The notes below the pieces were generated by a model. The model was not told where the DNA came from, did no database searches, and saw nothing but the letters and a program-made list of their open reading frames with translations. DNA of 55,000 nt from a virus (Duplodnaviria > Caudoviricetes), in IMG/VR virus record IMGVR_UViG_3300046534_001090, positions 1 to 55,000 of that record. One strand, given 5' to 3'. How positions within the stretch are numbered: position 1 is the stretch's first letter; the number at the start of each line of letters is the position of its first letter. A program made the position numbers and the translations under genes. Below, one piece after another: positions 3,126 through 48,651 of the stretch.

Positions 3126-3881
3126 TTGACTATTATGAGCATTGCAATCAATATAACGGGTATTAAAATTAGATGGGCCGGCCTAGTGAATGTTCCAACA
3201 ACTGTAGAAGAATATGCTGGATATCTTTTTGTATCCCTAACTACGTTTTTCTTCACTTGGGTTTTGAATCGAAAGAAAAACGAAGTTAAGAATGAACAGA
3301 TTGAAGAGAAAGATGATGAGATTAGAAATTTGAGAGCTGCCCTTGCTTATCGTGAGGGGAAGTTAGTACCAGTTCTTGATTGGTCAACGCAGGCCCAGAT
3401 AGACCGAAAGATCCAATTACTGAGGATTGATTTAAAAATCGAGAGAACTTTAATGCTATTTGCCTGCAATGGTAAGCAGGAGCCAACTGAAGTATCAAGC
3501 CTATGGATCAGAAACGATCACAACCAGAAAGAGGATAATCATTACAGGGTTACTTTAGATGATGATTACAGGGAAAGGCTGTATCTGATGAAGAAGTACG
3601 GGTATTTTTCTTTTCCTGCTGATGATGTTCCTGAAAACAGTTTGATAGCTGGTGTATATAAGGATCTAGGAGTTAAGCACTCGTTATGGACAATTCTTTA
3701 CTATGACGAAAACGAAAAGCTAGGAATAGCCGGTTATGTCTTTATGTCGTGGGTTAGGTTTGTTGACAATCCATTTACCGAAGAAGACATTCGGAAAGTA
3801 TTAGCAGTAGTTAATTTTAAATCTAGGAAGATGCTTGATAAAAAAGAGAAAGATCTAGCAATCCTCCTATCGAGGCACTAA
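3126..3881 (+). CDS. Membrane protein, putative holin-like lysis protein
   Basis: Single TM segment (YAGYLFVSLTTFFFTWVL), coiled coil and globular C-terminus; TAATG-coupled to the endolysin-like gene; start uncertain. Confidence 0.5.
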   Translation: MTIMSIAINITGIKIRWAGLVNVPTTVEEYAGYLFVSLTTFFFTWVLNRKKNEVKNEQIEEKDDEIRNLRAALAYREGKLVPVLDWSTQAQIDRKIQLLRIDLKIERTLMLFACNGKQEPTEVSSLWIRNDHNQKEDNHYRVTLDDDYRERLYLMKKYGYFSFPADDVPENSLIAGVYKDLGVKHSLWTILYYDENEKLGIAGYVFMSWVRFVDNPFTEEDIRKVLAVVNFKSRKMLDKKEKDLAILLSRH

Positions 3882-4423
3882 TGACACCAAAACTAGCGCA
3901 TAGCTTTCTTCTCCCTGCTTGTAGGCAATTATTCCCTGATGAGTTAATGGATGATAAGGCGCAGGCTGCAATGCTTACCATAGGAATGCAGGAGTCTGAC
4001 TTCTTGCACCGGCAGCAGCTGATTGGAAACCATAGAAACTGGTGGGAATCAGTTAGAGGACCGGCAACAAGTTTCTGGCAGTTCGAGAAAACCGGTGTTG
4101 CCGCGGTGCTTAGTCACCATAGAGCTGGACCAATGTTTGATGTAGCACTAAGAGCTCTTGGTTACCCAGCTGATGTTAATACGATCCACAAAGCCATTAC
4201 CCATAACGATATCTTAGCGGTAGCCATAGCTAGGTGCCTACTCTTCACTTTCCCCGATAGTTTGCCTGATTCAAATAATCCAGAAGAAGCCTGGCAGCAA
4301 TACCTATGGTGTTGGAGACCGGGAAAACCGAAAGAAAACAGATGGAATTCGCGCTATAATGCGGCTTGGGACATTGTTTCAGGTGTCAACGATAACCACT
4401 TATCACCCGAGATTGGTGAGTAA
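3881..4423 (+). CDS. Putative endolysin (lysozyme-like phage family)
   Basis: QES...HRQQ...GPATSFWQFE and W..YL..WRPGKP motifs recalled from a widespread proteobacterial-phage lysozyme-like family. Confidence 0.7.
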   Translation: MTPKLAHSFLLPACRQLFPDELMDDKAQAAMLTIGMQESDFLHRQQLIGNHRNWWESVRGPATSFWQFEKTGVAAVLSHHRAGPMFDVALRALGYPADVNTIHKAITHNDILAVAIARCLLFTFPDSLPDSNNPEEAWQQYLWCWRPGKPKENRWNSRYNAAWDIVSGVNDNHLSPEIGE

Positions 4424-4424
4424 T

Positions 4425-5141
4425 ATGAAAGATGTAATCAAAGCAGGCTTGTTTGCCGAAAGTGTTTACCACCAAGCTATCCCTAATATCCTAGCGAGCG
4501 AGGTTTTGTTCTATGATTCAATTCTGGACGAAGAAACGCAAACTATTGGGATGGCTTACTACACAGAAAATGCTATATGGCTATGTTTTGCTGGTACTCG
4601 CAATCGCCGTAACTGGCTATCTAACTTCAAGATTATTAAAAAAATGTACGGCGGCATGTTCAAGGCGCATAAAGGCTTTGCGGAATGCGCTGAAGCTCTT
4701 CAGGAGCAGTGTGAGGAAGCCATAGCAAAAAACAAAGATGCCGATATCTATATCGTAGGGCATAGTTTGGGAGGGGCTATAGCTGTTCTCATGGCTACAT
4801 TCCTCTATAAGCATTACGAAATCCGTAACTATACACTGATCACCTTTGGTCAGCCTTGTGTAACCTGGGGGAGAAACATTAAAAAGTATTTCCCTAAGAG
4901 ATATGTTCGCGTGGTCAATGGTAGTGATGCTATACCTAGAAGGCCTGGTATCGGCTATTCTCATGCTGGCTCGTTGCTATACTTAGATAACGATCAAAGG
5001 ACTTGGCGATTAAACCCAACTCGAGTAGGCACTTTTTTTGATAGGCTACCCACGCTATTCGGTCGATTTGGGGATCATTCACAGCAGTATTACAATAAAG
5101 TTTTAGGGCTAATGAAATGGAAAGACTATACTTCTTATTGA
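4425..5141 (+). CDS. Class 3 lipase (alpha/beta hydrolase)
   Basis: FAGT, AHKGF, GHSLGG nucleophile elbow, TFGQP, VNGSDAIP and terminal DH motifs; start ATG 4425. Confidence 0.9.
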   Translation: MKDVIKAGLFAESVYHQAIPNILASEVLFYDSILDEETQTIGMAYYTENAIWLCFAGTRNRRNWLSNFKIIKKMYGGMFKAHKGFAECAEALQEQCEEAIAKNKDADIYIVGHSLGGAIAVLMATFLYKHYEIRNYTLITFGQPCVTWGRNIKKYFPKRYVRVVNGSDAIPRRPGIGYSHAGSLLYLDNDQRTWRLNPTRVGTFFDRLPTLFGRFGDHSQQYYNKVLGLMKWKDYTSY

Positions 5142-6252: not shown

Positions 6253-7770
6253 ATGGCCAGCAGAGACATAGTAAGATTACCAGTGAGATTAGCAGTAAGA
6301 TTGGCGGTTAGATATCCGGTGTTGCGCTACTTCCTTCCGTTTGATCCTGTGCTTAACAGCTTCGGAGAACTTGCCACAGCTTGGACGCCAGCGGGTGATT
6401 TTAAAGCTGAGATAAACTTTTCATCTACTACGAGTTCTGGTATTTACACACTTTTTGAAAGCAGTGTTGATACGGAGCTTCTCTTTTGGATTAGGGACGG
6501 AAAACTTCAAGCGTATGTTGGTAATGGATCAGGTTGGGTAGTTTCAGCATTTAATGGCGTTGCCACTGTAACAGACGGCAAGTGGCGCAAAGCGGGGCTT
6601 AGTAAAGTTGGCAGCCTTTATACTATTTTTCTTGACGATGTAGCAGAAAGCACAGTAACAAACGCCACGGCTGTTACACCGTCTGTGAGCCTTGCAGGTA
6701 GAAGATGGTCCGGCGGTAACTACTTCCCAGGCGTACTAGCAAACCCCAAACTAACAGACCTAGACACCCCCGCCAACTCTTTAGAATTTAAGCTAAACAA
6801 AGCGACCGGAACCTACGAGTTGCCGGTTGGTAATGTGACGGGCACTGATAAAGTGGTTAACGGCGATTTTAGTCAGGGTACTACGGACTGGACTGTTGCT
6901 AATGCAGGTGCCCAAAACTTAATTTCAGTTGTAGATAGCCAGTTAAATTTTGTAGGAGATGGTTCAGCGGCTTTTGCTCTTGCAGGTAGTGCACCAATGG
7001 CCTTACCGGTCGGTGAAACATTCCTTATTACTGCCGACATAATAGCCTTTTCAGGGGCTATGCGAATGCTACTTGTTTCGGGTAACGCATCAAAAAACAT
7101 AACTTCGACTGGCAAATTTGAGTGGCTTTACACTTCTACAAATGGGGGTAGTCACCCGATGGGTCCATCGTTTAATAATGATGCCAACGCCTCTATAATT
7201 ATTGATAATATCAAAGTTCAGTCATTAACCAACGCTCTCCTGTACAACAACATTCCCGAAGCAAGCAGATTTCAAGCGGGGCTTGTCGGGCGGGATTGGG
7301 AGGGCACTACTACGCTAGTGGCTAATGGTACTTTTGATACCGGTAGTGACTGGTCATTACAGTCGGGGGTTACGATTTCGGGTGGTAAGTTAGTAATAGA
7401 CTCGTCCACAACTTTCGCACCACTAGCGACTCAAAATCTGTCTTTAGCAGACGGGGGCACCTTTAGACTTCGAGCTACTGCAAGCGGGTACGTGGAAGGC
7501 ACTGTTAACGTCCGGCAAGGCACTTCGGGCTCTGGCAATATAATTGAGATGGAAGCGAATGGGGACTTCACACAAAAATTTGGGGGCATAGCGGCATCTA
7601 CACTGGGTATCCGATCTAGCGCGGGTGACACCGAGGCAAACTTAGACACTCTTTCAATCAAATGGTTTTTAGAGGCACCACCCCTGCCAATAGCCTTGTT
7701 CAATTCAAGTGGTATAATGACGTGCGATGGCACACTTTCGTGCTCAGAAATAATACCTTGCGGAGATTAA
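6253..7770 (+). CDS. Beta-sandwich surface/virion protein with LamG/ConA-like and carbohydrate-binding-like repeats
   Basis: VTDGKWRK...YTIFLDD LamG-like segment; two domain starts, VVNGDFSQGTTDW and VANGTFDTGSDW. Confidence 0.65.
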   Translation: MASRDIVRLPVRLAVRLAVRYPVLRYFLPFDPVLNSFGELATAWTPAGDFKAEINFSSTTSSGIYTLFESSVDTELLFWIRDGKLQAYVGNGSGWVVSAFNGVATVTDGKWRKAGLSKVGSLYTIFLDDVAESTVTNATAVTPSVSLAGRRWSGGNYFPGVLANPKLTDLDTPANSLEFKLNKATGTYELPVGNVTGTDKVVNGDFSQGTTDWTVANAGAQNLISVVDSQLNFVGDGSAAFALAGSAPMALPVGETFLITADIIAFSGAMRMLLVSGNASKNITSTGKFEWLYTSTNGGSHPMGPSFNNDANASIIIDNIKVQSLTNALLYNNIPEASRFQAGLVGRDWEGTTTLVANGTFDTGSDWSLQSGVTISGGKLVIDSSTTFAPLATQNLSLADGGTFRLRATASGYVEGTVNVRQGTSGSGNIIEMEANGDFTQKFGGIAASTLGIRSSAGDTEANLDTLSIKWFLEAPPLPIALFNSSGIMTCDGTLSCSEIIPCGD

Positions 7771-7773: not shown

Positions 7774-8340
7774 ATGGCAATCCCAAATATAGAATGTGGC
7801 GTAACTACTGGTGCGGAACTTGCGACTAGAAATAACGCTGCAAAAGATTTAGCAGAGAGGGCCACCACTACTTATTGGTTCGATGCAAACGATGCTGCAA
7901 CAGCGTCTTCACCCATAGCTCATAGCGCCAACTCAACTACTACTTTTTTAACCAATGACGCAGCAGGTTCTAGCACTACGTTCTATAACCCCGATTCAAA
8001 AGCGGCGCTGTGGAACACAGCTACAAACAAGTTTGATTTTAGTAGCTTAAAAACTGGTGATACTGTCGAATTTAGAATTGACGTAAACATAGCAAACGCG
8101 GCGGCGCAGGAGATTAATCTAGTCATGGACCTTGCTGAAGGCAGCGGTAATGAGTATAGCTTAAACGTCAACCATACTTATTTTAAAACGGCCTCGTCAG
8201 GCGATCAGATTACCGCGATGTTTCGCGTGTACATGGGCGATGAGGATACTAGGACGGGGACGGCAAGGTTTAGACTTACGTCAATTGCAGCAACTACTGT
8301 AGTTGTTAATGGCTGGTTTTACCAGATTACGTCGGTTTAA
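7774..8340 (+). CDS. Beta-rich hypothetical virion/fibre-associated protein
   Basis: 188-aa Thr/Ala/Asn-rich ORF 3 nt after the previous gene. Confidence 0.6.
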   Translation: MAIPNIECGVTTGAELATRNNAAKDLAERATTTYWFDANDAATASSPIAHSANSTTTFLTNDAAGSSTTFYNPDSKAALWNTATNKFDFSSLKTGDTVEFRIDVNIANAAAQEINLVMDLAEGSGNEYSLNVNHTYFKTASSGDQITAMFRVYMGDEDTRTGTARFRLTSIAATTVVVNGWFYQITSV

Positions 8341-9087: not shown

Positions 9088-9134
9088 ATATTACGGTTTA
9101 ACAAGTATTAAATTCAATGCACCAGGAGAAATGT

Positions 9135-9914
9135 ATGAATGATCAAGAAGTAGAAAAAGAAATCGAAGAGAAGGGCTTAAACGCCCCTAGAATCAGCTTA
9201 GAGCACGTAAATTCATTGATATCGATAGTTGAGTATCATGTATTTGCTAACTCTACACTAACAGTCTGCTGCATTACCCTTGATAACGGGTTTACGGTAA
9301 CCGGCGAATCTGCTTGTGCCAGCTATGAGAACTACAACAAGCAACTAGGCGAGAAGATAGCCTATGAAAAGGCCAAGTCTAAGATCTGGATGCTTGAGGG
9401 CTATCTGCTAAAGGATAAACTGCATAACGGGCCTCAAAATGATGAGCCTGTTGATCCAGAGGCTGAATATAAACCCTCCAAACTTAGACGCTCCCCGCTT
9501 AAAGTCGGCCCGACTGCAATTAAACAGCGTTCGCAGAGTATTTATGATGATGTTGGAATGTCAACTATGGCTGCAGACTACTTTACGGATTTCGGCAAGT
9601 TCTTTCCGGAACAGGGATCAAAGCCGACAAAACCCGCTGAAGATAATGTAATGCCATTCGAGCAGACAGCTCTTTGTGTCGATGGTCCTATGCTCGGGGA
9701 TAGAGTTAGTGAATATAGAAAATCTTGGAAAGTCGAAGATGGTAATGGAAATATTGAATACCATTTAGTTCGTTTTATTACTGATGATGGGTTTTGGGTG
9801 GCATGGGCTACAAACAAACATATCAATTTTTTAAAAGCTGTTGCTGGTTTGACTCAAGCTCTTGCTATGCGATCGGGTCGAGATCATAGCGCGGGCTCTC
9901 GGATCAAGAAATGA
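9135..9914 (+). CDS. N4 Gp49/Sf6 Gp66 family protein with long C-terminal extension
   Basis: KGLNAPRI, LTVCCITLDNGFTVTGESAC, ENYNKQLG and KIWMLEGYLLK motifs; AGGAG SD before ATG 9135. Confidence 0.8.
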   Translation: MNDQEVEKEIEEKGLNAPRISLEHVNSLISIVEYHVFANSTLTVCCITLDNGFTVTGESACASYENYNKQLGEKIAYEKAKSKIWMLEGYLLKDKLHNGPQNDEPVDPEAEYKPSKLRRSPLKVGPTAIKQRSQSIYDDVGMSTMAADYFTDFGKFFPEQGSKPTKPAEDNVMPFEQTALCVDGPMLGDRVSEYRKSWKVEDGNGNIEYHLVRFITDDGFWVAWATNKHINFLKAVAGLTQALAMRSGRDHSAGSRIKK

Positions 9915-10234
9915 ATAGGCGTCAATTCATAAAGAAAGCAGCAATAGGGGTGACTGGTGCTATGGTAGCCGGTCCTTCTATTGCGGCTATGTCTGCTGAT
10001 AAAGATCCTTTTTATGAGCTAGATGCCATGATGAAGATTATGATGGATAATCTGTACTATGCTTCTAATCCACCATTGATTGCTGATCATGTTCACGATG
10101 CTATGAAATTCGGGACAGCTATATTCAAGACTCCTGGGACGGCTATATTGAAAACTCATGGGCATAGCCTATCTGTGTATCGATCGAGCGCAAAGATACC
10201 ACTATCAAAGTTCTTGGGTTTAGACGATGAATAG
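9911..10234 (+). CDS. Twin-arginine signal protein with portal-like motifs
   Basis: MNRRQFIK plus h-region and SIAA; ATGA overlap with the upstream gene; MMDN..ASNPPLI and DAMKFGTAIFK segments. Confidence 0.7.
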   Translation: MNRRQFIKKAAIGVTGAMVAGPSIAAMSADKDPFYELDAMMKIMMDNLYYASNPPLIADHVHDAMKFGTAIFKTPGTAILKTHGHSLSVYRSSAKIPLSKFLGLDDE

Positions 10235-10517
10235 GCGTAAATTTCTTTCTATGGCTATACAGGGGGCGGTAGCTGCTATTGCTGCCCCAAGTCTATTGGT
10301 TGCTGAAACCATGTCTGTAGGCGATAACGTCATTACTTTAGAGAATTTAAGAAATATGATTAGAGTTCTTCATGCTAATAAAGCGACTCCAATTACTTAT
10401 CTTGCTCCAATTAGTGGGTTTGTCTTTATAAATTCTTATCTTGAAGAAAACGGTAACTTTTCTGGCGTAGGTTCGCTTGAAATGCCTTGTAGATTTATTG
10501 AGAATAAAAATGAGTAA
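10227..10517 (+). CDS. Twin-arginine signal protein with major-capsid-like segment
   Basis: MNRRKFLS plus h-region; overlaps both neighbours; three blocks colinear with the MCP. Confidence 0.7.
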   Translation: MNRRKFLSMAIQGAVAAIAAPSLLVAETMSVGDNVITLENLRNMIRVLHANKATPITYLAPISGFVFINSYLEENGNFSGVGSLEMPCRFIENKNE

Positions 10518-11217
10518 GCTAATGGATCAGTTGGCATCCATCACTACTAAGAAGCCTACCGTTAAGAAGCCTGCTGCTAAGAAAGCGGTGCCTCGTAAAC
10601 GCAATCCAACCAAACCAGCTGCTAAGAAGCCTGCGCCTAAGACAGTTCCCAAGAAGGCCAAGGTTACCACCAGAACTATCAAGAAGCCTGCACTGCCAAA
10701 GGTAGCTAAACCTGCCCAAGACAAAGCAGAGAAGAATACCGGCTTTAAATTCCCCAAGGGTAACAAATACTGGCATCTTAGGACTAAGACTGGTCGTAAT
10801 TCCAAGTGGGATAATCCTCAACAGCTGTTAGATGACTGCATTAGCTACCTGGAGTGGGTGGATATGAACCCGCTATGGGAAGAGAAGCCATTTTCTTACC
10901 AAGGCGATATTGTTATTGCCAATGTAAATGTTATGCGAGCCGCTACGCTGAATGGATTGCAGATGCACATAGGGATTAGTGATCAAGGATGGCTTAATTA
11001 CAGGGTCAAGCCTGACTTTGTTGGGGTCATAGAGTATGTAGAGAAAGCAATCTATGAGCAAAAGTTCACTGGTGCTGCGGCTAACCTATTGAATGCAAAC
11101 ATAATTTCAAGAGAATTGGGCTTGGCAGACAAAAAAGAGCTTACCGGCGCTGGTGGTGGACCAATAAAAAGCATTACTCGGCAGATAGTTCAGCCCGAGC
11201 AATCTAACAATAATTAA
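10510..11217 (+). CDS. terS: Terminase small subunit (P22 gp3-like) with K/A/P-rich N-terminal extension
   Basis: FPKGNKYW, GRN, YLEWVDMNPLWE and IYEQKFTGAAANLLNANIISRELGLADK match the P22 gp3 pattern. Confidence 0.9.
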   Translation: MSKLMDQLASITTKKPTVKKPAAKKAVPRKRNPTKPAAKKPAPKTVPKKAKVTTRTIKKPALPKVAKPAQDKAEKNTGFKFPKGNKYWHLRTKTGRNSKWDNPQQLLDDCISYLEWVDMNPLWEEKPFSYQGDIVIANVNVMRAATLNGLQMHIGISDQGWLNYRVKPDFVGVIEYVEKAIYEQKFTGAAANLLNANIISRELGLADKKELTGAGGGPIKSITRQIVQPEQSNNN

Positions 11218-11235
11218 AAAATACATGAGGTTTTT

Positions 11236-11610
11236 ATGAGAACAGAATTATTGAAAGAAGCTCAGTTGCCAAGCATCCATAACTTCAGTGACAGAGTTAC
11301 CATTATGCGGGCTGATTACCAACGCTTTGTAAAAAGCTATGGGGCTCTTCTTTATTTCGCCTCAAGGGTGATTGGTATCAAAGAAGACAAAGTTACTGTT
11401 GTAAGTATGGAAACGTTTGAGGTTACAAGATTTAACAATCATAACCGCTACATTGAAAACCTTTCTTTTCCAGTTAGCTCTTACATTGAGGAAATAAACA
11501 AGCTCAAGAAAGAGAACCAAAGACTTAAAACTATTGTTGCTAGAAATTGTTTAGATGAAGATGTTAATGAGGTTAGAAGTAGTAAGAACCTCAATATTGA
11601 CTACCCATGA
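11236..11610 (+). CDS. Hypothetical protein between terS and terL
   Basis: GAGG SD; C-terminal coiled coil. Confidence 0.65.
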   Translation: MRTELLKEAQLPSIHNFSDRVTIMRADYQRFVKSYGALLYFASRVIGIKEDKVTVVSMETFEVTRFNNHNRYIENLSFPVSSYIEEINKLKKENQRLKTIVARNCLDEDVNEVRSSKNLNIDYP

Positions 11611-11650
11611 ATATATGGCTCCTTATCAATCAGAAGACTAGCGGCAATTA

Positions 11651-12976
11651 ATGAATTTACAGATACCTACTGCTGAAGTCTTTGTTCCGCTGCTTGATCC
11701 AGCTAGATATAAAGGCGCTGATGGTGGTCGCGGTAGTGGTAAGTCTCACTTCTTTGCCGGCTTAGGTGTAGAGGATGCACTAAGGTTCCCAGGTGAGGCC
11801 GGTGAAGGAATGCGCTGGCTATGTGGGCGCGAGATACAGAAGAGCTTGCAGCAGTCTGCCAAACACCTGATCGAGACTAAGATTAATGATTTTGGTCTAG
11901 GCGAGAAAGATGGTTTCAAGATATTCAAAGATGTTATCCAGCTACCGGGCGATGGCATCTGCCTATTCCAAGGTCTTCAGGACCATACTTCGGAATCTAT
12001 TAAGTCTTTTGAAGGCATCCATAGATTCTGGAATGAGGAAGCTCAGACTACTTCAGCCCAGACTTTAAAGCTGATTAGGCCCACAATACGTTGGGAAGAC
12101 AAAGTTAGAGGATTAAAGTCTGAACTATGGTTCTCATGGAACGGTCGCAGAAAACTTGATCCAGTTGATATAATGTTCAAGGGTGGCAATCCTCCTACTG
12201 GCTCAAAGCACGTAAGATCCAACTGGAATCATAATCCATGGTTCCCGGATATCCTGAATCAAGAGAGAATGGACTGCCTAAATAATGACCCGGATCAGTA
12301 CGATCATATATGGGAAGGTGATTATGTGTCGGTAATGGAGGGAGCTTATTTTGCCAAACATCTTAAAGAGGCTCGGGCGCAGGGTCGTATCGGTCGTGTT
12401 GGTCCGGACCCTCTCATTACCTACAGAGCTTTCTGTGATTTGGGTGGTACTGGCGCTAGAGCTGATGCGTTTACTATCTGGATTGCTCAATTTGTAAACC
12501 GTGAAATAAGGGTGCTCAACTACTACGAGGCCCAAGGTCAGGATATGGCTACTCATATCACCTGGCTTAGAGCTAATGGCTACAATGAGCAGAATACGGG
12601 TATTTGGTTGCCGCACGATGGCAGCACGAATGATCGGGTGCATGATGTATCGTTTGAGTCAGCATTCAAGTCAGCAGGATTTGCGGTCGAAGTAATACCT
12701 AATCAGGGCAAAGGTGCAGCAAAGGCAAGGATTGAAGCGGGTAGACGGTTATTCCCGTTAATGTGGTTTAATGAAGATCCCTGCAGTGGTGGCCTTGATG
12801 CACTAGGATGGTATCACGAGAAGAAGGATGAGAAGAGGGACATCGGTCTAGGACCGGATCACGACTGGTCTAGCCACGGCGCTGATGCTTTTGGGCTCAT
12901 GGCTGTAGCGTATGAACAACCACGACAAAAATCAAAAAGGAAGGTAAACTCAGTCACTGATCACATGAATATTTAA
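11651..12976 (+). CDS. terL: Terminase large subunit (PBSX family)
   Basis: GGRGSGKS Walker A, REIQKS, IKSFEG, WNEEAQ Walker B, LPHDG and HDWSSHGADAF nuclease motifs. Confidence 0.95.
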   Translation: MNLQIPTAEVFVPLLDPARYKGADGGRGSGKSHFFAGLGVEDALRFPGEAGEGMRWLCGREIQKSLQQSAKHLIETKINDFGLGEKDGFKIFKDVIQLPGDGICLFQGLQDHTSESIKSFEGIHRFWNEEAQTTSAQTLKLIRPTIRWEDKVRGLKSELWFSWNGRRKLDPVDIMFKGGNPPTGSKHVRSNWNHNPWFPDILNQERMDCLNNDPDQYDHIWEGDYVSVMEGAYFAKHLKEARAQGRIGRVGPDPLITYRAFCDLGGTGARADAFTIWIAQFVNREIRVLNYYEAQGQDMATHITWLRANGYNEQNTGIWLPHDGSTNDRVHDVSFESAFKSAGFAVEVIPNQGKGAAKARIEAGRRLFPLMWFNEDPCSGGLDALGWYHEKKDEKRDIGLGPDHDWSSHGADAFGLMAVAYEQPRQKSKRKVNSVTDHMNI

Positions 12977-13359: not shown

Positions 13360-15666
13360 ATGAACACTGAAGAATCTAATATGTTGAGCAGCCAAGAAGA
13401 TACGGCTATGGAAGATGATTTTGAGCTTGGTGAAGAAAATGCTCAAGAGCAGCTAAAGCAAAATCTTGAAGCATTAAGCTCGGTTCTTTCTGAATGGCGT
13501 TCGGAAGCTATTAGTTCCAGACAAGCCAGCGGCATTGAAACTGAGTGGACAGAGGACGAGGATTATTACGAAGGTATCGATGACCTTAATCGCAATAGCC
13601 AGCGCCCCAAAAACTCAAAGCCTACAGGTGTAGGATCCTCAGACAATAGCGATACTCAGACAAACAGCACCGGTTCAAAAGTATTCCCCAACATAACTAG
13701 ACCTTTTGTTGATGCGAGTTCAGATAGAACAGCTGATATGTTGCTGCCTGTTGATGATGTTGCCTGGGTTCTTAATCCTACCCCTATTCCTGAAATGGGG
13801 GAGATAGCTGATGGTGAGATACCCCCTGAGATCCTAGCCCAGATTCAGGCTGAAGGTGGCGATGAAGCTGTAATTGAGGCTAAAAAGCAGCAGCTAATTG
13901 AAGAGGTTAGCAAGATAGTTAAAGAAGCTAGAGAGACTGCTGCAAGGGCAGAGAAGCGCATTCAGGATTGGCATATAGAATGTCAGTACCACGCTCATGC
14001 TCGTAAAATGATCAAAGATTGCGCTCGTATCGGCACCGGTGTATTGAAAGGCCCGATAGTCACAAAGAAACAAGTGGTAGCGTATAAAGAAGGCAAGCTC
14101 ATTGTTAAGGAAGAGATTGTTCCTGTTACCCGTAGAATAGATCCAATTAATTTTTATCCTCATGGCGCTTGCGGCGAGTACGTTGATAACGGCTCTTATG
14201 CTATGGACCGTGACGATATTACCCGCAAGAAGCTGGAAGAACTTAAAGGTACGCCAGGTTACTTTGCTTTTCAGTTAGATGCCTGTTTAGAAGAAGGCCC
14301 GATTGAAACCACTGATGTAGCTACTACCGAGCGGCAAAACCGCAAGAAGAAAGACAATAAAGACCTTTTTGATATCTGGTATTTGTACGGCCAAGTTCAG
14401 GTTGAAGACTACCTAAGAGCCTTACAACTTAGACCGGACCTTGATAACGATGAGATAAATGAAGAGCTCAATGCTGTTGAAGGTAAAAAATCAGTCTACG
14501 TTGAGGCCACAATTGTTAATGATCGAATTGTTAAGCTGATTCAAAATACTCTTGATACTGGCGAATTCCCTTACGATTTAATGGTATGGCAGGCAAGGCG
14601 CGGATCTCCATGGGGTATCGGTGTTGGCCGGCAAGTTAGAACAGCTCAAGATATCTTTAAAGCTGCTTGGCGTAACATGATGGACAATGCCGGTAGAGCT
14701 TCAGGCCCACAAGTGATTTGGGATGAAGAGTATATTGAGCCAGCTATCGGTGAGATTTATCAAATCAAGCCATGGGGTCAATGGGTTCTTAAGAAGTCTT
14801 TATCCCAAGGCATGCGGATAGATCAGGTGTTTGCTTTCATTGAAGCCCCTATGTACCAGGCTGAAATGAGAAACATTATTGAAATGGCAATATCTTTAGC
14901 TCAAGAAGCGACTGGATTGCCTCTTATTATGCAGGGTCAAACCGATTCAGCTACGCCAGATACTCTAGGCGGCATGGTACTTCAGAACAATAATGCCTCA
15001 ACTGTTATGCGCGGGATAGCGCGAACCTTTGATGACCGGGTAACCGAGCGGAATGTGCGTAGACACTATACCTATCTGCTGATTTACGGTGAAGACAATG
15101 AGAAGGGCGATTTCAAGGTAGATGCTAAAGGCTCTGCTGGATTGGTTGAGCGTGATATGCAGGCTCCTATCCTTATGAATCTAATGACATTGTTTCAGAA
15201 TCCAGTTTACGGTAAGGATCCTAGGCGCGCAGCAGATGAGTTTCTTAAAGCAATGCGCTTTGATGCTACTCAGTTTGATTACGATGACGAGAAATGGAAA
15301 GAAATGGTTGCCAAGATCATGGAGCCAGTGCCTGATAATGCTGTTGAGATTGCCAATATCCGTAAAGAAATGAATTCTGAAACTCTTGCGAGCAAAGAAA
15401 ATATTGAGGCGTACAAATCTCAAGCTCAAGCTGCACTTAAAAATGCCGAGCAAGAGTTCGAGGTTCTTATGTCTACTGTTAATCAAGATGAGTTGGCATT
15501 TAAAGAGAGTGAGGCGTTTAAGCGCGTTACTGCTCAGATCAAGGGAAAACTGGCTGAAACCATGGCCAGTATTCAAGCCCAGCTTACGATGGGCGATACC
15601 GAAATAGCACCTACACCAGTAGAGCCGGCACAAAGAGCCCCTGCTGGGCAGGCTTATACACAGTAA
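13360..15666 (+). CDS. Portal protein
   Basis: 768 aa after terL; IGTGVLKGP, PWGIGV, MMDN and ATGLP..MQG podoviral portal motifs. Confidence 0.88.
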   Translation: MNTEESNMLSSQEDTAMEDDFELGEENAQEQLKQNLEALSSVLSEWRSEAISSRQASGIETEWTEDEDYYEGIDDLNRNSQRPKNSKPTGVGSSDNSDTQTNSTGSKVFPNITRPFVDASSDRTADMLLPVDDVAWVLNPTPIPEMGEIADGEIPPEILAQIQAEGGDEAVIEAKKQQLIEEVSKIVKEARETAARAEKRIQDWHIECQYHAHARKMIKDCARIGTGVLKGPIVTKKQVVAYKEGKLIVKEEIVPVTRRIDPINFYPHGACGEYVDNGSYAMDRDDITRKKLEELKGTPGYFAFQLDACLEEGPIETTDVATTERQNRKKKDNKDLFDIWYLYGQVQVEDYLRALQLRPDLDNDEINEELNAVEGKKSVYVEATIVNDRIVKLIQNTLDTGEFPYDLMVWQARRGSPWGIGVGRQVRTAQDIFKAAWRNMMDNAGRASGPQVIWDEEYIEPAIGEIYQIKPWGQWVLKKSLSQGMRIDQVFAFIEAPMYQAEMRNIIEMAISLAQEATGLPLIMQGQTDSATPDTLGGMVLQNNNASTVMRGIARTFDDRVTERNVRRHYTYLLIYGEDNEKGDFKVDAKGSAGLVERDMQAPILMNLMTLFQNPVYGKDPRRAADEFLKAMRFDATQFDYDDEKWKEMVAKIMEPVPDNAVEIANIRKEMNSETLASKENIEAYKSQAQAALKNAEQEFEVLMSTVNQDELAFKESEAFKRVTAQIKGKLAETMASIQAQLTMGDTEIAPTPVEPAQRAPAGQAYTQ

Positions 15667-17236: not shown

Positions 17237-18283
17237 ATGGGTGGTAATACTTTACTAAATCCGGCTCAGAGAGTCGGCGTAACAAAAGGCGCAATACTTA
17301 AGCATGCAGAGCCTAAAGAAGCTCTTGGCATAACTGGCACACTTCACGATATGGCGAAAAATGTCGGTGATACTGTAAAGTATCGCAGATGGTTGCCTTA
17401 TGGTGGATCAACTACCAACGCTAACACTATCAATCGATGGTCGGTTACTGTTGCGGCACACCAGCTGCAAGAAGGCCAAAACCCTGAAGCTGATGGTTTA
17501 GAATCTCAAGATATCACTGTCACTATGCGTGACTACGGTGCTATCTACTACTACACCAACTACGTTGAAGATCTTTACGAAGATGATATCCCGCGCGCCC
17601 AAAAGATGGTCCTTGGTCAGCGTATGGGTCTTGTCCGTGAAATGATTCGATACGGCACGCTGCAAGGCTGTACTAACAAGTTCTATGCAAGCGGCGCCAC
17701 TCGTGCAACTGTTGCCGGTAAGGTCAGTCTAAATGCGCTTCGGGTTATCTCGAAGTCATTGAAGGGCAATCACTGTGAGTTCATCACTGAGGTTCTTAAG
17801 CCTGGTGCTGCTTATGGTACTACTGGTGTCGAGCAATCATTCCTTGTATTTGTTCACACAGATGCAGAGAACGATATTCGTAACCTTCCTGGCTTTAAAG
17901 AAACCATTATTTATGCCAGCGGTAAGCCTATTCACAAGTGCGAAATTGGTTCGGTGGATAATTATCGATTCCTTATGAGCCCTGAACTTAACCCGATTAT
18001 CAATTCGGGTGCTGCTGTTGGTTCAACTGGTTTGTATTCTACTGGTGGTACTAATGTCGATGTATATCCATTCATCGTTGTTGGTGCTGATGCTTGGGGC
18101 GATGTTGCACTCAAGGGTTCCAGAAGTTTTGATTATTCTCACTTGCCTCCTGGCCAGAAAGATAAATCAGATGTTCTGGGTAAACGTGGGTATGTCGGTG
18201 CAAGTTTCTACTCAGCGATGTTCATCCAGAACGATGGATGGATGGCGGTACTAGAAGCCGGTATCACTTCACTTTCTGCTTAA
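17237..18283 (+). CDS. Major capsid protein, N4-gp56 family
   Basis: TVKYRRW, LQEGQNP, EIGSVDNYRF, VDVYP, G.DAWG and DVLGKRGYVG motifs. Confidence 0.92.
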   Translation: MGGNTLLNPAQRVGVTKGAILKHAEPKEALGITGTLHDMAKNVGDTVKYRRWLPYGGSTTNANTINRWSVTVAAHQLQEGQNPEADGLESQDITVTMRDYGAIYYYTNYVEDLYEDDIPRAQKMVLGQRMGLVREMIRYGTLQGCTNKFYASGATRATVAGKVSLNALRVISKSLKGNHCEFITEVLKPGAAYGTTGVEQSFLVFVHTDAENDIRNLPGFKETIIYASGKPIHKCEIGSVDNYRFLMSPELNPIINSGAAVGSTGLYSTGGTNVDVYPFIVVGADAWGDVALKGSRSFDYSHLPPGQKDKSDVLGKRGYVGASFYSAMFIQNDGWMAVLEAGITSLSA

Positions 18284-29138: not shown

Positions 29139-29814
29139 AGGTATCGCTGGTAAATTTCTACGGGGTGTTAATGCTGTAGCTGCTCCTGCTGCTCTTGCAC
29201 AGCAGCAATCCAATATTGAACAGAAGCGCATGCAGATTCTGCAAGGTTATGCACAGCAAAATATGCAGGCCCAGCAAGATTTTAATGTTGCCAGTGATGA
29301 CCGCAGGCAGGGTTATGCTGTTGAGAATCTTGAGACTGCTCAAGGGTATGCAGAAGATAACCGGGCGGCAGATCAAGCATTTAGTAGAGTTGAGAATGCT
29401 GCCGATCGATCCTTGCAAGTCGAAAGAAACGAGATGGCAGGCGAGACTTTAGATATTGAAAGAGATAGATTTGAAATTGCCAAAGAGCAGGCAGTTGTTG
29501 CGCTGGAAAGTGCCGAACTTGGTCTTGCTGACAAGAAGAGGCTTGAGGGTTTATATCAAATTGTTGCAGATGTTAATTCTGCTGAAGAGGCGAGAGATCA
29601 AGCTGCAGAAGCTATTAATCAACTTACCGGGAAAGGTGGTAATGAAAGCTATAGCGCAATAACGGCATTTAGTGAGCCTAATGAATATGGCGAGCAAACC
29701 AAGGCTGCGGGTGTTCTCAATAGAAGAACTGGCGAACAAGAGTGGATATCCCCAAGTTATGGCAATAACCAAGATGATGATCCTTTAGGTATACGGTCGA
29801 GAATCAGAAAATAA
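29131..29814 (+). CDS. Internal virion (ejection) protein
   Basis: Gln/Ala-rich helical protein, TAATG-coupled to the giant gene. Confidence 0.65.
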   Translation: MARGIAGKFLRGVNAVAAPAALAQQQSNIEQKRMQILQGYAQQNMQAQQDFNVASDDRRQGYAVENLETAQGYAEDNRAADQAFSRVENAADRSLQVERNEMAGETLDIERDRFEIAKEQAVVALESAELGLADKKRLEGLYQIVADVNSAEEARDQAAEAINQLTGKGGNESYSAITAFSEPNEYGEQTKAAGVLNRRTGEQEWISPSYGNNQDDDPLGIRSRIRK

Positions 29815-32800
29815 TGACATTAGAAGAAATCCGGCAGAAGTATCCTCAGTATGCTGATCTGAGTGATCAGGTACTTGCGGATTCCTTGTATGAAAGCTCT
29901 TACTCAGATATTGAACGTCCTGAGTTTGATTCCCTTGTGGGTTTTCAGGCTAAACCTGATGCTCCTAATGCCAGCATTATTGATACCGCTCTTGATTATG
30001 GTATCGATTTTTCATCCGGCGCTGTTAGCTTGGGCGAATCGGTTGTTGGTATTGGTGATCTGCTAACAGGGAACTTAGTTGGCAAAGGTCTATCTTCTAT
30101 TGGCTATGACCCTGAAAAGACTAGAGAAATACTCAAGTCAGGCTATAGCCCTGAAAGAAAGCAGCAACTAGAAGAAGTTCAAGCTGCTGAAGGCTTTCTT
30201 AATACTGTTATTGCAGCAATTCAAAATCCCGGTGTGGCCATTGGCACAATCATTGAATCAACTCCTTATTTGCTAGGTAGTGCTGCACTGGTTAGATCTG
30301 CCGGCACTTCAATGCTGGCAAGCAAAGGCATAACGCCTGGAACAAAAGCCGCACAGATATTCTTTAAAGACCCCAAAGTTCTGACTAAGTTGGCTACTAT
30401 CGGCGCCATTAGTGAAGGAGCTATGGCCGCGGGCAGCATCCAAGAACAGGCAAGGCAGGAAGGGCAGGGCTATTTTGATTCAGCTGGCTATGCTCTTGCG
30501 GCGGGAGCCGGCACAGCTCTTATAGGCAGGCTTGCATCCAGAATACCGGGCTTTGGTGATTTGGAAACCACTGTTGGTACTGCCGGCTTAGGTGCAGGCG
30601 AAGGGTTTACTACCGGCAGACTCAAACAAGCCATTATGGATATCGGCAAGGGTGCTATTCAAGAAGGTGTGCTCGAGGAATTACCTCAGTCTGCACAAGA
30701 GCAAGTATTCAGTAACCTAGCACTTGATAAGCCATGGAATGAGAACGTGCCTGAAGCTGCTGCCATGGGCTTGATAGCCGGTGCCGGCATGGGTGGTGGT
30801 GTAGGTATTATCCGCACTGCTATGCGTAGAAAAGATATCGAAGAAACAATTGCAGGGATTACCGACCCTGATAAATCAATCGATGACGCTATCTCAGAAG
30901 CTGATCAGATCCTTCAGGGTAATGAGGTTGAGTTTAACGCGGCTATTGAATCATCTGCTATTGAGTCTCAGGCCAAAGAGCGAAGCGATATCATTCAAGA
31001 TATCCAAAACCAGATAGCCGAAGCTGACAAGAAAATTGAGAAGGCCCGCGGTGATAGAAGCCAATCTGATATTGATACGGCCACTACTGAAAGGCAGGGA
31101 TTAAGGTCAGAGCTATCGAACATGATAGGCATGGACCTTGATACAACTTTTAACCCTACTGTTAGCAACATGGAAGCTACTCTTATTCCGGGCGAGCAGA
31201 TACCTGGCATTGATATAGTTAGACAGGCACTAGGTCTTGAGATAGAAACAGATCAGCAGTCTCAGGCCCGTCTAGATGGCACTCTTGGCAATGTAGACTT
31301 TACCCCTACTGCTAACACCGATTTATCAATAGCTCCACGTGAAACCGCAGAGGATACGGGAGGCATAGACTTTGAGCGCCCCGAGATAACTACTAGCAGG
31401 CTAGAGCCTAGCGCAAATATACAAACCAGCCCTATTGAATCTGTTGACTTCAAAACAACGGATCTTGCTATTGAGACTAACGATCAGGCTAATAGCCGGT
31501 TATCTTCCAATAATACAACCGTAGACTTCCAGCCTAGCAAGACTTCCAGCATGGAGTTAGCGCCTAAAACCGCTCCTACCACTGGCAGTATCGACTTTGT
31601 TCGGCCAGAAAGGACTACAAGCCAATTAGATGGTGCCGAAACACAGCGCCCCGGCGAGCAGATACCTTCCGTTGATTTTGAAAGGCCAACTGCTTTATCT
31701 ACTACCGATATTCCCGCTACAAATCAGGATGCTACTACCAGCGCCCCAGCTGTCGATTACAATCCAGATAGACTACCTCTTGTTAAAAGCGATGGGACCG
31801 CATTTAAAACAGAAAAATCGGCCACTATGTCAAAGCAGTTTAAATCTGTACCTGGTGCGACTGTTATTCCTGTAGACGGTGGTTTTGCTGTTAAGCCTCC
31901 TACCGCCGAGCAAGTTCAGGCTACTAAAGATCAAGCTGCTGAAGCTGACAAGGCTTCTACCGAACTATCCACAAAGATTAGAGGTATTGTAGGGCGATCA
32001 GAAAAGCTAAGCGATGCAAGAACCGCTGTTGCTCGAGAGCTTGGCAATGAAGTTACTCAGCAGCAAGAACAGAATATCAAGTCTTACTGGAATCAGGATC
32101 AGCAAAAAGCCCGTAAACAGATTAAGGAAAGCGATTCACTAGCTGTTGCAATAGCGAAGCTAGGCGGCATTGATATGAGCTACCGCGAGGATATGACTCG
32201 CGATACTACTGAAAACAAGATGGTTCCCGGTGTCGGCGCCATGTTTAACAAGAAAGGTACTAGCCCTGATGATATGGCTACTGCCTTGCTGCAGTACAAC
32301 TACCTTACTCAGTCTGAAATTGATAACGCGATGGATAACGGGGGTGTTAATGCGCTTGCCGATCTAATCAATGAAGAGCTTGCTGGCGGGAAGAAGCGGT
32401 ATCAGGTTGGATCTGCTTTTGAGCAAGAGCAGATGAATGCTGAAATTGATGCCGAGTACCTTGAACAGAAACAAATTGTTGAAGAAGATCGTGACGATGT
32501 ATATTCTGAGATTGCTGCCGAATACGGCCAAGAAATAGCTGACCAGGCTAGGGTTTATGATCAAGATACTGAAGACTATGTTTATACGCTAGAATCTGAC
32601 CTTGATTCTCAGATGGAATCTCAAATTCAACAGGAGAGGGATTTAGAAAATGAAACAATCAACCAAGACGCGGCAGAGGCCAGCACCACCACCAGTGATG
32701 AGTCCATTGGGCAAACTGCTGACCAACAGAGCGGATTCGCTAGAACAGAGGATCAAAACGCTCAAGAAGAAGACTTCCAGCTAGGCCAGCAATCAGATGC

Positions 32801-35800
32801 TGATATCTTGGCTCAAGAGCGCGCGCAGAAAGCTGCTGACGATACCGCCAAAAAAGCTGAAGAAAAGCAAAAGGCTGACGATGAGTTAGGTGATTTTAAT
32901 CTTGCCGGCTCAAATTCGGCGGTAGACCAGGCTGAATCTCGCGGCCAAGGCAATATGTTCGATGCCATGGGCCGGGCTCCTGTCTCTGATACTGAGGCAG
33001 AGGTTCAAAGACTAACTAAGCAAGTAAACAAAGGCGAAGGAACAGATCAGCTTAGAGCTAAAGCCGGTGGTGAGTTTGGCCCTAATGGGGAGTGGTATGA
33101 AGGTGGTAAGTTTATCGCTACTACAAACCTTCCTAAAAGAATGCAAGTGTGGCTAAAAAACGCTACTAGAAATACAGAAGTTCTTACCGAGTTTGCGACT
33201 GACGATACCCCTGCCAAAAAATCTATTCCTCGTATTGGTCAATTCCCGATTGTTTCTGGCATTGCTGATGCTTATGGGGCGTTTGGTCCTCAGGGGAAAA
33301 CAAGCGATGGCCGCGAAGAGTGGATGAGAGAAAACTATAGCCCGGATCTTTATGCTGAAATAGTGAAAGCCAGGGATTTGTATATCAGTGGCGATAGATG
33401 GGTAAGCGTGCTTGATTTTCCTCTTTCTGCCAATGTATCCGATCTATCTCGAATGATTGTCAACGATATTGCTGTGCCAGAAGAGGCAATAATTAACAGG
33501 GACCAGAAAGTTCAAGACAATATTCGCGCTGTGCAGAAAGCGTATGAAAATGAGTTTTCAGATATTGTCACCACTCCCGCCGAAACATCTAGCGCCGAAT
33601 TAGTAGATGCTGATATCTTTGAAGCTATAGATAATGCCGCAGATTACAACAAGAAATTAGAAAATAGCTACGTAGAGCGCAATTTCTCAGACCAGATTTC
33701 TGCTGAATTCTTAAAAATTCGCACTAGGACAAAGCGCAACGAATGGTTAGACGATAATCTAACCGGCGACCAAGAAAATGAATTGCAGGATTTGTATAAT
33801 TTAGATGAGGATAGGCTTAACGAATTGTCTCAATACGTGGGTCAGTTTGATGATAGCTCCCCGCAAGCCATGGGAAAAAGCATTGCCTTGTGGTTTAAAG
33901 ATGTTGATTCTAAAAATTTCAAAGATACCCCGCAATACGCTGGAATTCTTAGTGCGCTAGAGTTTGCGAAATCAAAAAACTGGGACTTAAATACGGTAAT
34001 GGTTGGCGCTACTGATCGAATTAATGAGTGGGCTGGTAGCGATGCGGCTGAATTATTCCCTAGATTCTTCGGGCAAGATGCCGACAATACCCGCACCATA
34101 GAGCAGGTCCAGCTTGAATATCAAGCTGTAGAGGTTCTTAACGGCGATGATATGACTGAGTCTCGCCTTGAACAACAAGATACCTTGAGAGAGGAAGCTA
34201 AGGATCTACAGGTAGAAAAAGCTCAATCCATGCTTGATGAGGGCAAGGTTCCTGTATTTCAGGAAGGTGATCTTTATTACACAATTACCCCTTCTACCAG
34301 ATCACAAGGCAAGTACCAGCTTACTACCTACAATAAGACTGGTGCGCTTGGTGACACTACCCTTAATTCCCTTGAAGCAATCAATCGAGAACTTCAGTTA
34401 GCCTCGGCTACCATATTGCCAGAATCAGAAGCTGATAAGGTTATGGGCGATATAGCGATTGCTGAAGGTGAGTTTCAGGAGAGAAGAACTAAATCACAAG
34501 AGCAGGCGAATGATCCTGCCAGTCAAGCTATCTCACAATTTACCACTGCCATTAAGGATCTCACTGATCAATTAAAGGCTCCTGCTGCTACGGGTCAAGC
34601 TACTCAAACTGTTGCCGAACCAGATGTAAAATCAACTCCATTAAGTCAAGCCGATGAACAAGTTTCTAAAATACCTGATGGCGACTTGCCTATTGATGAG
34701 TTTAAGGCGGCTTTTGAATTCGTTGTTGAAAACAAGGAAGCTATTAAAACTGAACTTAGCAGTAGTATGACTAAGGCTCAATTGCTAGACAGACTAGGCG
34801 CTTACGAATCCTCTCGCTATAAAAATGAAAAAAAGTCGATGGTTGTATCTACTGTTTTTGACGATATTTTAAGCGACTTCTTGGCGCCCACTGCTGGCGA
34901 ATCTGGAATGATTAGCTACTCTATTGGCATGGGCGGTGATGCTACTCAATCTAAGAGGAATAAGATAAATGCGCTTACTCAGGAAGATTTAGATAACCAT
35001 GCTACTCGCATAGAGCAAAGCAGGAAAGACCGCGCCAAAGCTCTTGAGGAAAAAGAAGAAGGCATTGAAAACCCTGAAAGTATTCAGGACTATGAAAATT
35101 TACTTAATAAGCTTGCTCGTGAAAATGAAGTAAAAACCTTTGCTGAGGCTCGTAACTTACTACCGTTAGATCAGCGTATGGAATTTGATGTGTTAAAGGC
35201 CGCTGAATCAAGAGGTAAGCGCGTTGATAATAAGGATGCAGAAAAAACAAGACTTCAAACTTCGGATATAGCTCAAGTTGGTGAAATTATTGAAACTACT
35301 CACACCAAGAAAGGCTATGACCTTTTTGTTATTCAGCTCGAAGACCGTATTGAAAAGGAAGAATATCAAAAACTAAATGCGTCTGCTAAAAAACTGGGCG
35401 GTCGTTACTCATCGTTTAGAGGGAGTGGGGCTATACCAGGCTTTACTTTTACTGAGCGTGATAATGCTGAAGCATTTCAAAAGCTGGTTGGTGGTGATAC
35501 TGATCAAGCGCAAGAAGTCGCGCAGGCCCGTAGGGATGAGTTTAAAGATGATAAGTCACAGTCTGCTGTCGAGCGCCTTAGAACTATGGCAGATTCCCTT
35601 GAAGAAAGAGCTAATACGTCATTAAATCAAGACAGAAAAGAAAATACGGCTCGCAGGGCAGGGATGGCAGCTAGTGCTACTGCTAAAGCTGAAGCTGAAA
35701 TTGCTATGGCTCAAACCATGAATAATATTGCCAACTCTATTGAGTCTGGTGATGCTCAATTTTTAGATCAAGTTAGAACTAAAACCCAAGTAGAAATGCT

Positions 35801-45741: not shown

Positions 45742-45756
45742 TTTGTTCTCCTAGTG

Positions 45757-46638: not shown

Positions 46639-46665
46639 AACTTATAGTCCTGGCTCTAGTGAGTT

Positions 46666-48627: not shown

Positions 48628-48651
48628 TTTAAAACGGATTAATTAGTTGGT

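Follow-up and report, generated by a model that had tools for sequence, protein, structure and literature searches.

Why should a tailed phage carry, directly upstream of terS, two small overlapping genes whose products appear to join a leader for protein export to fragments reminiscent of its own head proteins? The question is posed by a 55,000-nucleotide stretch of DNA, here called the window, which is a 55-kb IMG/VR virus record (IMGVR_UViG_3300046534_001090) with an estimated completeness of 91%. The nearest relatives of the window come from Tara ocean and ice metagenomes, and the phage is an uncultured polar marine tailed phage; a close relative is absent among GenBank phages, where 8 records match, each covering at most 7% of a 3-kb query. 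The two genes, open reading frames (ORFs) A and B, encode 107 and 96 residues, respectively. The reading preferred here, tentatively and with a probability of about 0.45, is that they are late, co-translated accessory genes encoding two-module mini-proteins, each composed of a twin-arginine translocation (Tat)-type leader and a cargo made of diverged motifs of conserved head proteins. The first module would be a leader of approximately 25–30 residues and the second a cargo of approximately 70 residues, which in ORF B would be a shrunken copy of residues ~156–251 of the major capsid protein (MCP) and in ORF A would probably consist of look-alikes of portal residues 433–453 followed by 218–232. 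A preliminary description, made from the letters of the DNA alone, had proposed that both products are miniature mimics of the phage's own portal and MCP placed behind twin-arginine signals.

Twin-arginine leaders of ORF A and ORF B

9911..10234, + strand: ORF A, 107 aa, Tat-type leader followed by a cargo with portal-like motifs
9911..9997, + strand: ORF A leader, residues 1–29, MNRRQFIKK followed by a G/A/T-rich h-region (TIGR01409)
10227..10517, + strand: ORF B, 96 aa, Tat-type leader followed by an MCP-like cargo
10227..10310, + strand: ORF B leader, residues 1–28, MNRRKFLS followed by an A-rich h-region

ORF A and ORF B open with the identical 12-mer ATGAATAGGCGT, whose sole two matches in the window are these two starts (0.32 matches are expected by chance at one mismatch or fewer, and two or more matches arise in 6 of 100 shuffles). 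The stretch common to both starts extends over 17 nt, of which 16 are identical, in agreement with the near-identical beginnings noted earlier. The encoded N-termini, MNRRQFIKK in ORF A and MNRRKFLS in ORF B, both present twin arginines within residues 2–8 (NRRQFIK and NRRKFLS), and a weakly hydrophobic stretch then follows in each. Tat signal peptides carry a motif approximating (S/T)-R-R-x-F-L-K near the N-terminus. When all start sites of the window with at least 40 aa downstream are scanned, an RRx[F..] motif is combined with a hydrophobic stretch above 1.6 at just 2 of 1239 sites, those of ORF A and ORF B. Over 12 residues the hydrophobicity peaks at 1.68 in ORF A and 2.26 in ORF B, the latter being the top value of the motif scan. 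The TIGR01409 TAT_signal model assigns 19.2 bits to ORF A, above its cut-off of 16.7. Candidate signal-peptidase sites, placed by eye, lie between SIA and A or between MSA and D in ORF A, and between VAA and I or between LVA and E in ORF B. A feature search of the ESM Atlas with ORF A returns Tat-signal clusters at 0.82–0.87, values that serve as leads only. The similarity between the two products is confined to the leaders: BLASTP aligns residues 1–24 alone (11/24 identical, E 3e-4) and the mature parts are unrelated to each other, as had been described.

Resemblance of the ORF B cargo to the major capsid protein

10323..10397, + strand: ORF B residues 33–57, apparent copy of the conserved MCP segment 160–184 (hhalign, HMMER)
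17237-18283, + strand: MCP gene (phrog_1357 E 1.3e-54)
17714..17788, + strand: MCP residues 160–184, conserved helix-plus-strand segment (conservation in 46–61 MCPs)

The strongest connection between the mini-proteins and the phage head is made by ORF B. Profiles of the MCP family were built from 5 relatives at first and then from 61 MCPs (46 in a second hhalign run) collected from 80 IMG/VR loci. With 61 MCPs, ORF B residues 33–57 align with MCP residues 160–184 at an hhalign score of 28.8 (P 3.8e-4, probability 36%), and the match strengthens with the depth of the profile, the P value having been 0.0045 with 5 sequences; the second run, with 46 MCPs, returned P 0.0011 and a probability of 20.7%. 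The score of 28.8 is reached by 0 of 140 natural fragments, which were 68-residue pieces of other window proteins (maximum 16.8), and by 0 of 140 shuffles (maximum 18.1), and Gumbel extrapolation of these nulls gives a value of ~1e-5. HMMER, run without filters, assigns the ORF B match to the MCP profile 10.8 bits (E 9.5e-6 at Z=1) and ranks ORF B first among 4025 sequences (25 real sequences and 4000 shuffles) and second among the 6237 small ORFs of the 80 loci and the window, where the E value for the set is 0.056. Under permissive gap costs ORF B residues 29–96 become colinear with MCP residues 156–251 (P 1.4e-4, probability 53%); the extension past residue 57 contributes little to the score and is tentative, the solid core being MCP 160–184.

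The residues retained by ORF B are those on which the family agrees. All four MCP columns of the segment that are conserved at 90% or more are kept (R169, R173, N178 and T184), and the segment is identical to the family consensus at 12/25 positions compared with 7/25 for the MCP of the phage itself, which ranks 58th of 61. Since ORF B is nearer to the family consensus than to its own MCP and the invariant residues are kept, the segment would be an old or foreign copy rather than a recent copy of the resident gene. Together, the profile matches support the view that the ORF B cargo contains a conserved MCP segment in reduced and diverged form.

The MCP family (phrog_1357) matches solved HK97-fold capsid chains (9e99_A, E 1.1e-19), further solved relatives being 9d7z, 9d82 and 9bgn. 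By the usual order of HK97-fold elements, MCP 160–184 would be the first helix and strand of the A-domain, and a helix is predicted at ORF B residues 38–50 in a low-confidence model. ORF B shares with these capsid proteins the alignment of residues 33–57 with 160–184 and its four invariant residues. It differs from them in length, with a cargo of at most 68 residues compared with the 348 residues of the MCP, in the added leader and in the strong divergence of the segment. The cargo aligns at most to MCP 156–251 and does not comprise the complete HK97 fold with its N-arm, E-loop, P- and A-domains; neither the fold nor a shell could be formed by it.

A second small ORF with capsid similarity was encountered in a relative of 59% MCP identity (contig L025, positions 3905-4150). 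This 81-aa leaderless ORF lies ~1.7 kb upstream of the portal gene and contains a copy of MCP residues 37–62 (16.1 bits, E 2.2e-7 per comparison, the best of the 6237 small ORFs); either a further mini-gene with a capsid motif or the remnant of a gene may be present here.

Resemblance of the ORF A cargo to the portal protein

10019..10081, + strand: ORF A residues 37–57, hypervariable, resembling portal residues 433–453 (motif m2; hhalign)
10091..10135, + strand: ORF A residues 61–75, conserved, resembling portal residues 218–232 (motif m1; hhalign)
10112..10159, + strand: 24-nt tandem duplication (GTAIFKTP / GTAILKTH) within the portal-m1-like segment (repeat search, copies 83% identical)
13360-15666, + strand: portal gene (SU10_portal PF23899 E 5.2e-12, phrog_332 E 3.6e-21)
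14011..14055, + strand: portal residues 218–232, conserved motif m1 (conservation in 32 portals)
14656..14718, + strand: portal residues 433–453, conserved motif m2 (conservation in 32 portals)

The cargo of ORF A was compared with portal profiles built from 6 relatives at first and then from 32 portals of the 80 IMG/VR loci. ORF A residues 61–75 align with portal residues 218–232 (hhalign P 0.0081, score 23.7) and match four of the six portal columns conserved at 90% or more. As a second hit, residues 37–57 align with portal residues 433–453 at P 0.042, or at 0.014–0.021 when a profile of the ORF A alleles is used, so that the two motifs appear in permuted order, the 433–453-like segment preceding the 218–232-like one. 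Over residues 37–57, 9 of 21 positions are as in the phage's own portal, which ranks first of the 32 portals for m2, and three ORF A alleles each retain 7–9 of the 21 portal-like positions, partly different ones. None of the 110 natural fragments attains the top portal score of ORF A, and none of 120 shuffles does (shuffle maximum 23.1 vs 23.7). Among 52 window proteins the portal ranks first for ORF A with P 0.03, which is about the chance level for the best of 52. Pairwise, BLASTP of ORF A against the portal yields a best E of 0.03 over 21 residues, and the Smith-Waterman score of 39 is reached by 14 of 300 shuffles and equalled or exceeded by three other window proteins. The resemblance of ORF A to two of the most highly conserved portal motifs is suggestive and carries about even odds (P ~0.003–0.04 per test).

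The proposal of capsid and portal mimics therefore divides between the two genes. Its MCP half is borne out for ORF B by the family profiles in hhalign and HMMER, with the correction that the likeness is to the MCP family and not to the phage's own MCP (7/25, rank 58/61), and its portal half remains suggestive for ORF A. The tandem duplication of the portal-m1-like core in the window allele of ORF A, also reported in a companion to the preliminary description, was recovered as the 24-nt repeat with copies 83% identical.

In a further contig (L064, positions 3234-3578) a 114-aa ORF matches the portal C-terminus with 58.9 bits; this contig probably has a split or frameshifted portal gene.

Specificity of the two matches

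The two pairings stand out when other small ORFs and other head genes are considered. In 92 comparisons, in which 23 small ORFs were set against 4 head-gene family profiles, the best is ORF B with the MCP (P 7e-4), followed by ORF A with the portal (0.013), the next value being 0.034. Scaffold-family and terL-family controls are null (P 0.34–0.6), and so are the cross pairs.

Coupling of ORF A and ORF B to the packaging genes

9117..9914, + strand: gp49-like gene of the N4 gp49 / Sf6 gp66 family (PF13876 E 2.4e-27, phrog_322 E 7.3e-51)
10510..11217, + strand: terS, directly after ORF B (phrog_606 E 2.3e-43, PF16677 E 2.6e-19)

The gp49-like gene, ORF A, ORF B and terS form an uninterrupted chain with successive overlaps of 4, 8 and 8 nt. 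The claim that two overlapping, coupled genes lie directly upstream of terS is thus correct, the identity of terS being given by its phrog_606 and PF16677 matches. The TGA stop of the gp49-like gene sits within the ORF A start (ATGA), and the terS ATG is located 8 nt inside the end of ORF B. Each junction start reads ATGA[A/G]TA[A/G] and contains stops in both other frames, used as TGA by the gp49-like gene, TAG by ORF A and TAA by ORF B. Because both other frames are stopped, an upstream gene in either of them ends on the next start, and a cassette can be inserted with the coupling kept. The form is common to the three junctions at 9911-9918, 10227-10234 and 10510-10517 (TGA plus TAG/TAA stops). 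Between positions 8000 and 12000 an excess of promoter-like or terminator-like signals was not found (4 vs 8.9 expected and 1 vs 3.0 expected, respectively). Codon log-odds in frame are +0.205 for ORF A, +0.299 for ORF B and +0.210 for terS, and the other five frames are negative for both A and B. ORF A and ORF B are real, translationally coupled accessory genes.

Distribution and variation

10231..10513, + strand: 283-bp block containing ORF B, with ATGA on both flanks, an insertion relative to contig L003 (window-L003 alignment)

Both genes have very few relatives. A search of 5.8 billion clustered proteins yields three homologues of ORF A, P0001 (95% identical), P0002 (78%) and P0003 (69%), and cluster look-ups bring the full-length alleles to four in all, including P0010. 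The proteins P0003, P0007 and P0009 do not represent leaderless forms but the same genes called at shorter length, P0003 corresponding to the P0010 allele; full leaders are carried by P0010 and by P0006, the ORF B variant described below. Residues 1–31 of ORF A are invariant in the four full-length alleles, the C-terminal half is conserved with residues 61–75 invariant, and residues ~32–50 fall into three clearly distinct forms. All full-length homologues seen keep the RRxF leader; this conservation, which counts in favour of the original proposal, had been named beforehand as a point on which that proposal would stand or fall.

All relatives of ORF B fall within its own 90% cluster, which comprises 5 members, and its variant P0006 (S63N) is present on 9 contigs. 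A full HMMER pass over 1.84 billion representatives gave ORF B just one match, a spurious one to a repeat protein. The 1957-aa rubrerythrin-repeat protein P0005 (E 1.6e-4) was rejected, its score being summed over 4 repeats and its metal-binding cysteines being missing from ORF B. Searches of GenBank phages with ORF A and ORF B by tblastn found nothing at E<=1, and scans of IMG/VR with the two ORFs gave no relatives.

Close relatives differ in the presence of ORF B. The Tara contig L003 contains the gp49-like gene, an ORF A of 95% identity and terS; ORF B is absent from it and ORF A abuts terS. ATGA stands at either edge of the 283-bp block that the window has in addition, and the insertion thus takes over the existing start codon of terS and brings a replacement with it. 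Window and L003 are 95.4% identical over the ORF A DNA and 90.3% at the terS start, and their gp49-like proteins are 69% identical. Between the two copies of ORF A there are 5 amino-acid changes and 6 synonymous ones, and the stop codon is changed. ORF B occurs in contigs from all four ice-metagenome runs, where both of its junctions are bridged; no RNA run is among the sequencing runs listed for the locus. In two of these runs, X3 and X5, the variable segment of ORF A is replaced by 68 other letters, and the second copy of the 24-nt duplication is missing from the contigs of all four ice runs and from P0010.

Surveys of more distant relatives returned little. Upstream of terS in contig L002 there is no counterpart of ORF A or ORF B, five portal loci contain no Tat-leader ORFs, and the 80 loci of MCP relatives (929 kb; the best 80 of 272), examined under loose criteria, gave 6 Tat-leader candidates, 4 of them antisense and none convincing.

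Such rarity would be expected if one or both ORFs were non-functional and ORF B were a junk insertion staying open by chance: across the 1.84 billion representatives ORF B has no homologue outside its 90% cluster, save the spurious repeat hit, and the structure models of both products are poor. This explanation is nonetheless very improbable. The codon log-odds of the two ORFs match those of terS and are positive in frame only, the exact stop-start junctions keep the coupling, at least 9 further contigs carry an intact ORF B with a single substitution, and the leader and C-terminal half of ORF A are conserved across alleles.

Evidence weighing against head-protein mimicry

Several results count against the two-module reading. 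With regard to the leaders, ORF B scores 13.6 bits with TIGR01409, under the cut-off of 16.7, and PF10518 is unreported for both ORFs in the Pfam scan at E<=1; of the twin-arginine signals claimed at the outset, the motif is present in both products and recognition by the TIGR01409 model extends to ORF A (19.2 vs 16.7) but not to ORF B. With regard to the capsid match, pairwise BLASTP of ORF B against its own MCP gives a best E of 2.7, and the Smith-Waterman score of 24 is under the shuffle mean of 27.4 and is reached by 250 of 300 shuffles. When a single MCP sequence serves as template, the MCP ranks 28th of 52 window proteins for ORF B (P 0.39). The 10.8 bits obtained with HMMER are far under any family threshold, the E value over 6237 ORFs is 0.056, and hhalign probabilities remain at 2–53%. 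With regard to the portal match, HMMER ranks ORF A 31st of 4025 and 80th of 6237, hhalign probabilities are 1.3–4.9%, and the best portal motif for ORF A switched when the profile was deepened. Neither ORF returns a capsid or portal family from PHROGs (E<=10) or Pfam (E<=1). The AlphaFold2 models have pLDDT values of 43.6 and 41.3 and are unreliable, and Foldseek against BFVD gives 0 matches at E<=0.001 among the 69 and 38 listed, a result that is uninformative at such model quality. The final difficulty concerns the design itself, as a purely cytoplasmic action sits uneasily with a leader for export, and an exported protein would not easily act on cytoplasmic sensors.

No portal or capsid protein appears among the Foldseek matches shown, the models being too poor for this to be informative. 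A PDB sequence search gives ORF A one match, a prenyltransferase at E 0.1, and ORF B none; in the ESM Atlas the scores for both ORFs are all below 0.9, with TM below 0.5. The mimicry was initially judged to be chance because pairwise BLASTP, Smith-Waterman, the structure models and Foldseek were empty, and that verdict was withdrawn after the family-profile tests. Of the two comparisons of the mature regions suggested in the preliminary description, Foldseek was negative on uninformative models, and the family profiles are positive for ORF B and suggestive for ORF A.

A rival explanation is that the two genes encode ordinary moron-type accessory proteins, small and either exported or anchored in the membrane, with a role in the envelope, for example in superinfection exclusion or lysis timing, the head resemblance being chance in ORF A and an evolutionary leftover in ORF B. 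The leaders are the only feature that the libraries recognise, the family is very small, with 3 homologues of ORF A and none of ORF B beyond its cluster, presence and alleles vary by strain, the statistics linking ORF A to the portal are weak and other MCPs are at least as close to ORF B as the phage's own. We consider this explanation somewhat unlikely, for three reasons. ORF B retains the most conserved MCP columns (4/4) despite an identity of 7/25 to its own MCP, a pattern that argues for continued selection and not for drift. The two ORFs with Tat-type leaders are also the two best of the 92 comparisons of small ORFs with head families. Finally, both genes are coupled to the packaging operon, unlike periplasmic exclusion proteins, which are typically made early.

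Possible function of the mini-proteins

If ORF A and ORF B are indeed two-module mini-proteins, they would be produced alongside the portal and the capsid protein, and the leader would bring them to the Tat translocon or the inner membrane, where they would either be exported or be retained by an uncleaved anchor. The cargo would then act as a molecular mimic competing for a partner that recognises conserved surfaces of head proteins. Candidate partners are a host immune sensor of capsid or portal and a component of a competing related phage. The likeness of ORF B to the family consensus would suit a target outside the phage itself.

In the first of these two cases, the one put forward in the preliminary description, the mini-proteins would be decoys that bind sensors of capsid or portal of the Avs4, CapRel or Lit kind and hold these sensors at the membrane or carry them out through Tat. 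What is copied is the best-conserved portion of each head protein, which would be the expected target of sensors, and co-translation with packaging and head genes would place the mini-proteins in the cell as the triggers accumulate. The hypervariable segment of ORF A fits an arms race. Avs-type proteins are, however, far larger than known Tat cargo, and a fragment that binds a sensor might trigger it instead of blocking it. Export by Tat of heterodimers in which one partner bears the leader is established, according to the available part of the source (PMC10924467), but no precedent for decoys of this kind was found in the literature searched. Overall, the decoy explanation is improbable.

In the second case the mini-proteins would interfere with or exclude related phages, the consensus-like fragments binding head or ejection components of co-infecting or superinfecting relatives while the divergent MCP of the phage itself is spared. 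The identities of ORF B, 12/25 to the family consensus vs 7/25 to its own MCP (rank 58/61), agree with such a role, and so does the variable presence of the gene among close relatives. Mobile elements are known to disrupt the virion assembly of competitors, as the accessible text on Tai systems describes (PMC11364771). A cytoplasmic assembly poison, though, needs no export leader, and the m2-like segment of ORF A is closest to the phage's own portal (rank 1/32), the opposite of the pattern in ORF B. Interference is a decidedly slim possibility, a little below that of sensor decoys.

Returning to the two-module mini-proteins preferred here, a bolder form can be proposed. The proteins would be export-tagged self-mimics, in which the best-conserved surface motifs of capsid and portal, displayed behind a Tat leader, capture a partner and then take it out of the cytoplasm or fix it at the membrane; the portal-type and capsid-type genes would be interchangeable tandem cassettes placed at the start codon of terS, and an arms race would be written into their variable segments. 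Either a host sensor of head proteins or, in rival related phages, proteins of ejection or assembly might be that partner. This proposal is rather unlikely as a whole. In the literature searched there is no description of Tat-leader proteins built from virion motifs.

Were such a bait function true, it would represent a new class of phage counter-defence or inter-phage weapon, the mini-proteins would point at the capsid and portal surfaces that cells or rival phages recognise, and the two products would join the small number of Tat substrates that phages encode. The locus also offers a natural experiment, with close relatives that have or lack ORF B and three portal-like alleles of ORF A behind an invariant leader, and for this reason function can be tested by simple swaps. 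If the resemblance is functionless, the locus is still a clean case of cassette insertion at a shared ATGA start/stop junction.

Comparison with known systems

In their N-terminal parts ORF A and ORF B resemble Tat signal peptides (TIGR01409 / PF10518), including the uncleaved anchors of Rieske type and the leaders of 'hitchhiker' heterodimers, in the pattern N-R-R-x-F-[IL]-[KS], in the weakly hydrophobic G/A-rich stretch and in the small residues that follow. They differ from Tat substrates in being phage-encoded and in having a cargo of ~70 aa with no cofactor-binding or enzyme domain. Phage examples are scarce: a SignalP-6.0 screen of the phages in a Klebsiella study reported no Tat motif in any protein, as far as the available text of that study goes (PMC13412088), and the accessible part of a 2026 review of Tat refers to phage in 4 places, none of which presents it as a source of Tat substrates.

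Small phage proteins sent to the envelope against incoming phages provide a parallel in logic. T4 Spackle, T5 Llp and P22 SieA are such proteins, and unlike ORF A and ORF B they are not described, in the portions of the sources that were available, as copies of virion motifs. These periplasmic superinfection-exclusion proteins use Sec or lipoprotein signals. The Tai/Ati tail-assembly-inhibition genes of prophages, PICIs and P4-like satellites are likewise small and accessory, belong to mobile elements, and work by way of the structural components of phages under a logic of self-protection; Tai targets tails, however, and in the accessible text it is not described as a fragment of its target and no export leader is mentioned (PMC11364771). 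A sequence relation between Tai/Ati and ORF A or ORF B was not found.

Four features characterise the proposed arrangement, namely a Tat-type leader, a head-motif cargo of less than ~100 aa, an accessory distribution and proximity to packaging genes. ORF B shows all four, and in ORF A the cargo feature is suggestive only.

Neighbouring genes and further observations

6253-7770, + strand: tail-fibre-like gene
7774-8340, + strand: acyltransferase-like gene, with two unknown genes between it and the gp49-like gene
11236-11610, + strand: 124-aa gene of unknown kind in the interval between terS and terL
11651-12976, + strand: terL
between the portal and MCP genes, + strand: scaffold-like gene

The interval between terS and terL is a second variable slot of the packaging operon (11217-11658). 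In ice runs X3 and X5 a different sequence of 315 letters takes the place of the 124-aa gene at 11236-11610, whose product has no family match and no match to the head-gene profiles. In the same ice contigs the gp49-like gene is altered at two places: a 41-nt stretch (9475-9517) is swapped for 89 letters, and 22 nt are deleted near the end of the gene (9874-9895). As judged by reading the frame, the deletion moves the stop from TGA to TAG at the same junction.

Elsewhere in the window, a class-3 lipase gene (PF01764 E 1.5e-23, phrog_21992) is located at 4359-5141, downstream of a phrog_3108 gene (unknown function). An integrase was not seen among the window genes scanned. Genes for a RecE-like exonuclease, a RecT-like annealing protein and a further exonuclease are clustered on the minus strand at 44673-49578, and a primosomal/replication-initiation gene and a DNA methyltransferase gene occupy 50172-51670 on the plus strand. 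After the tail and ejection genes, positions 29814-40778 are taken up by one ORF of 3654 aa.

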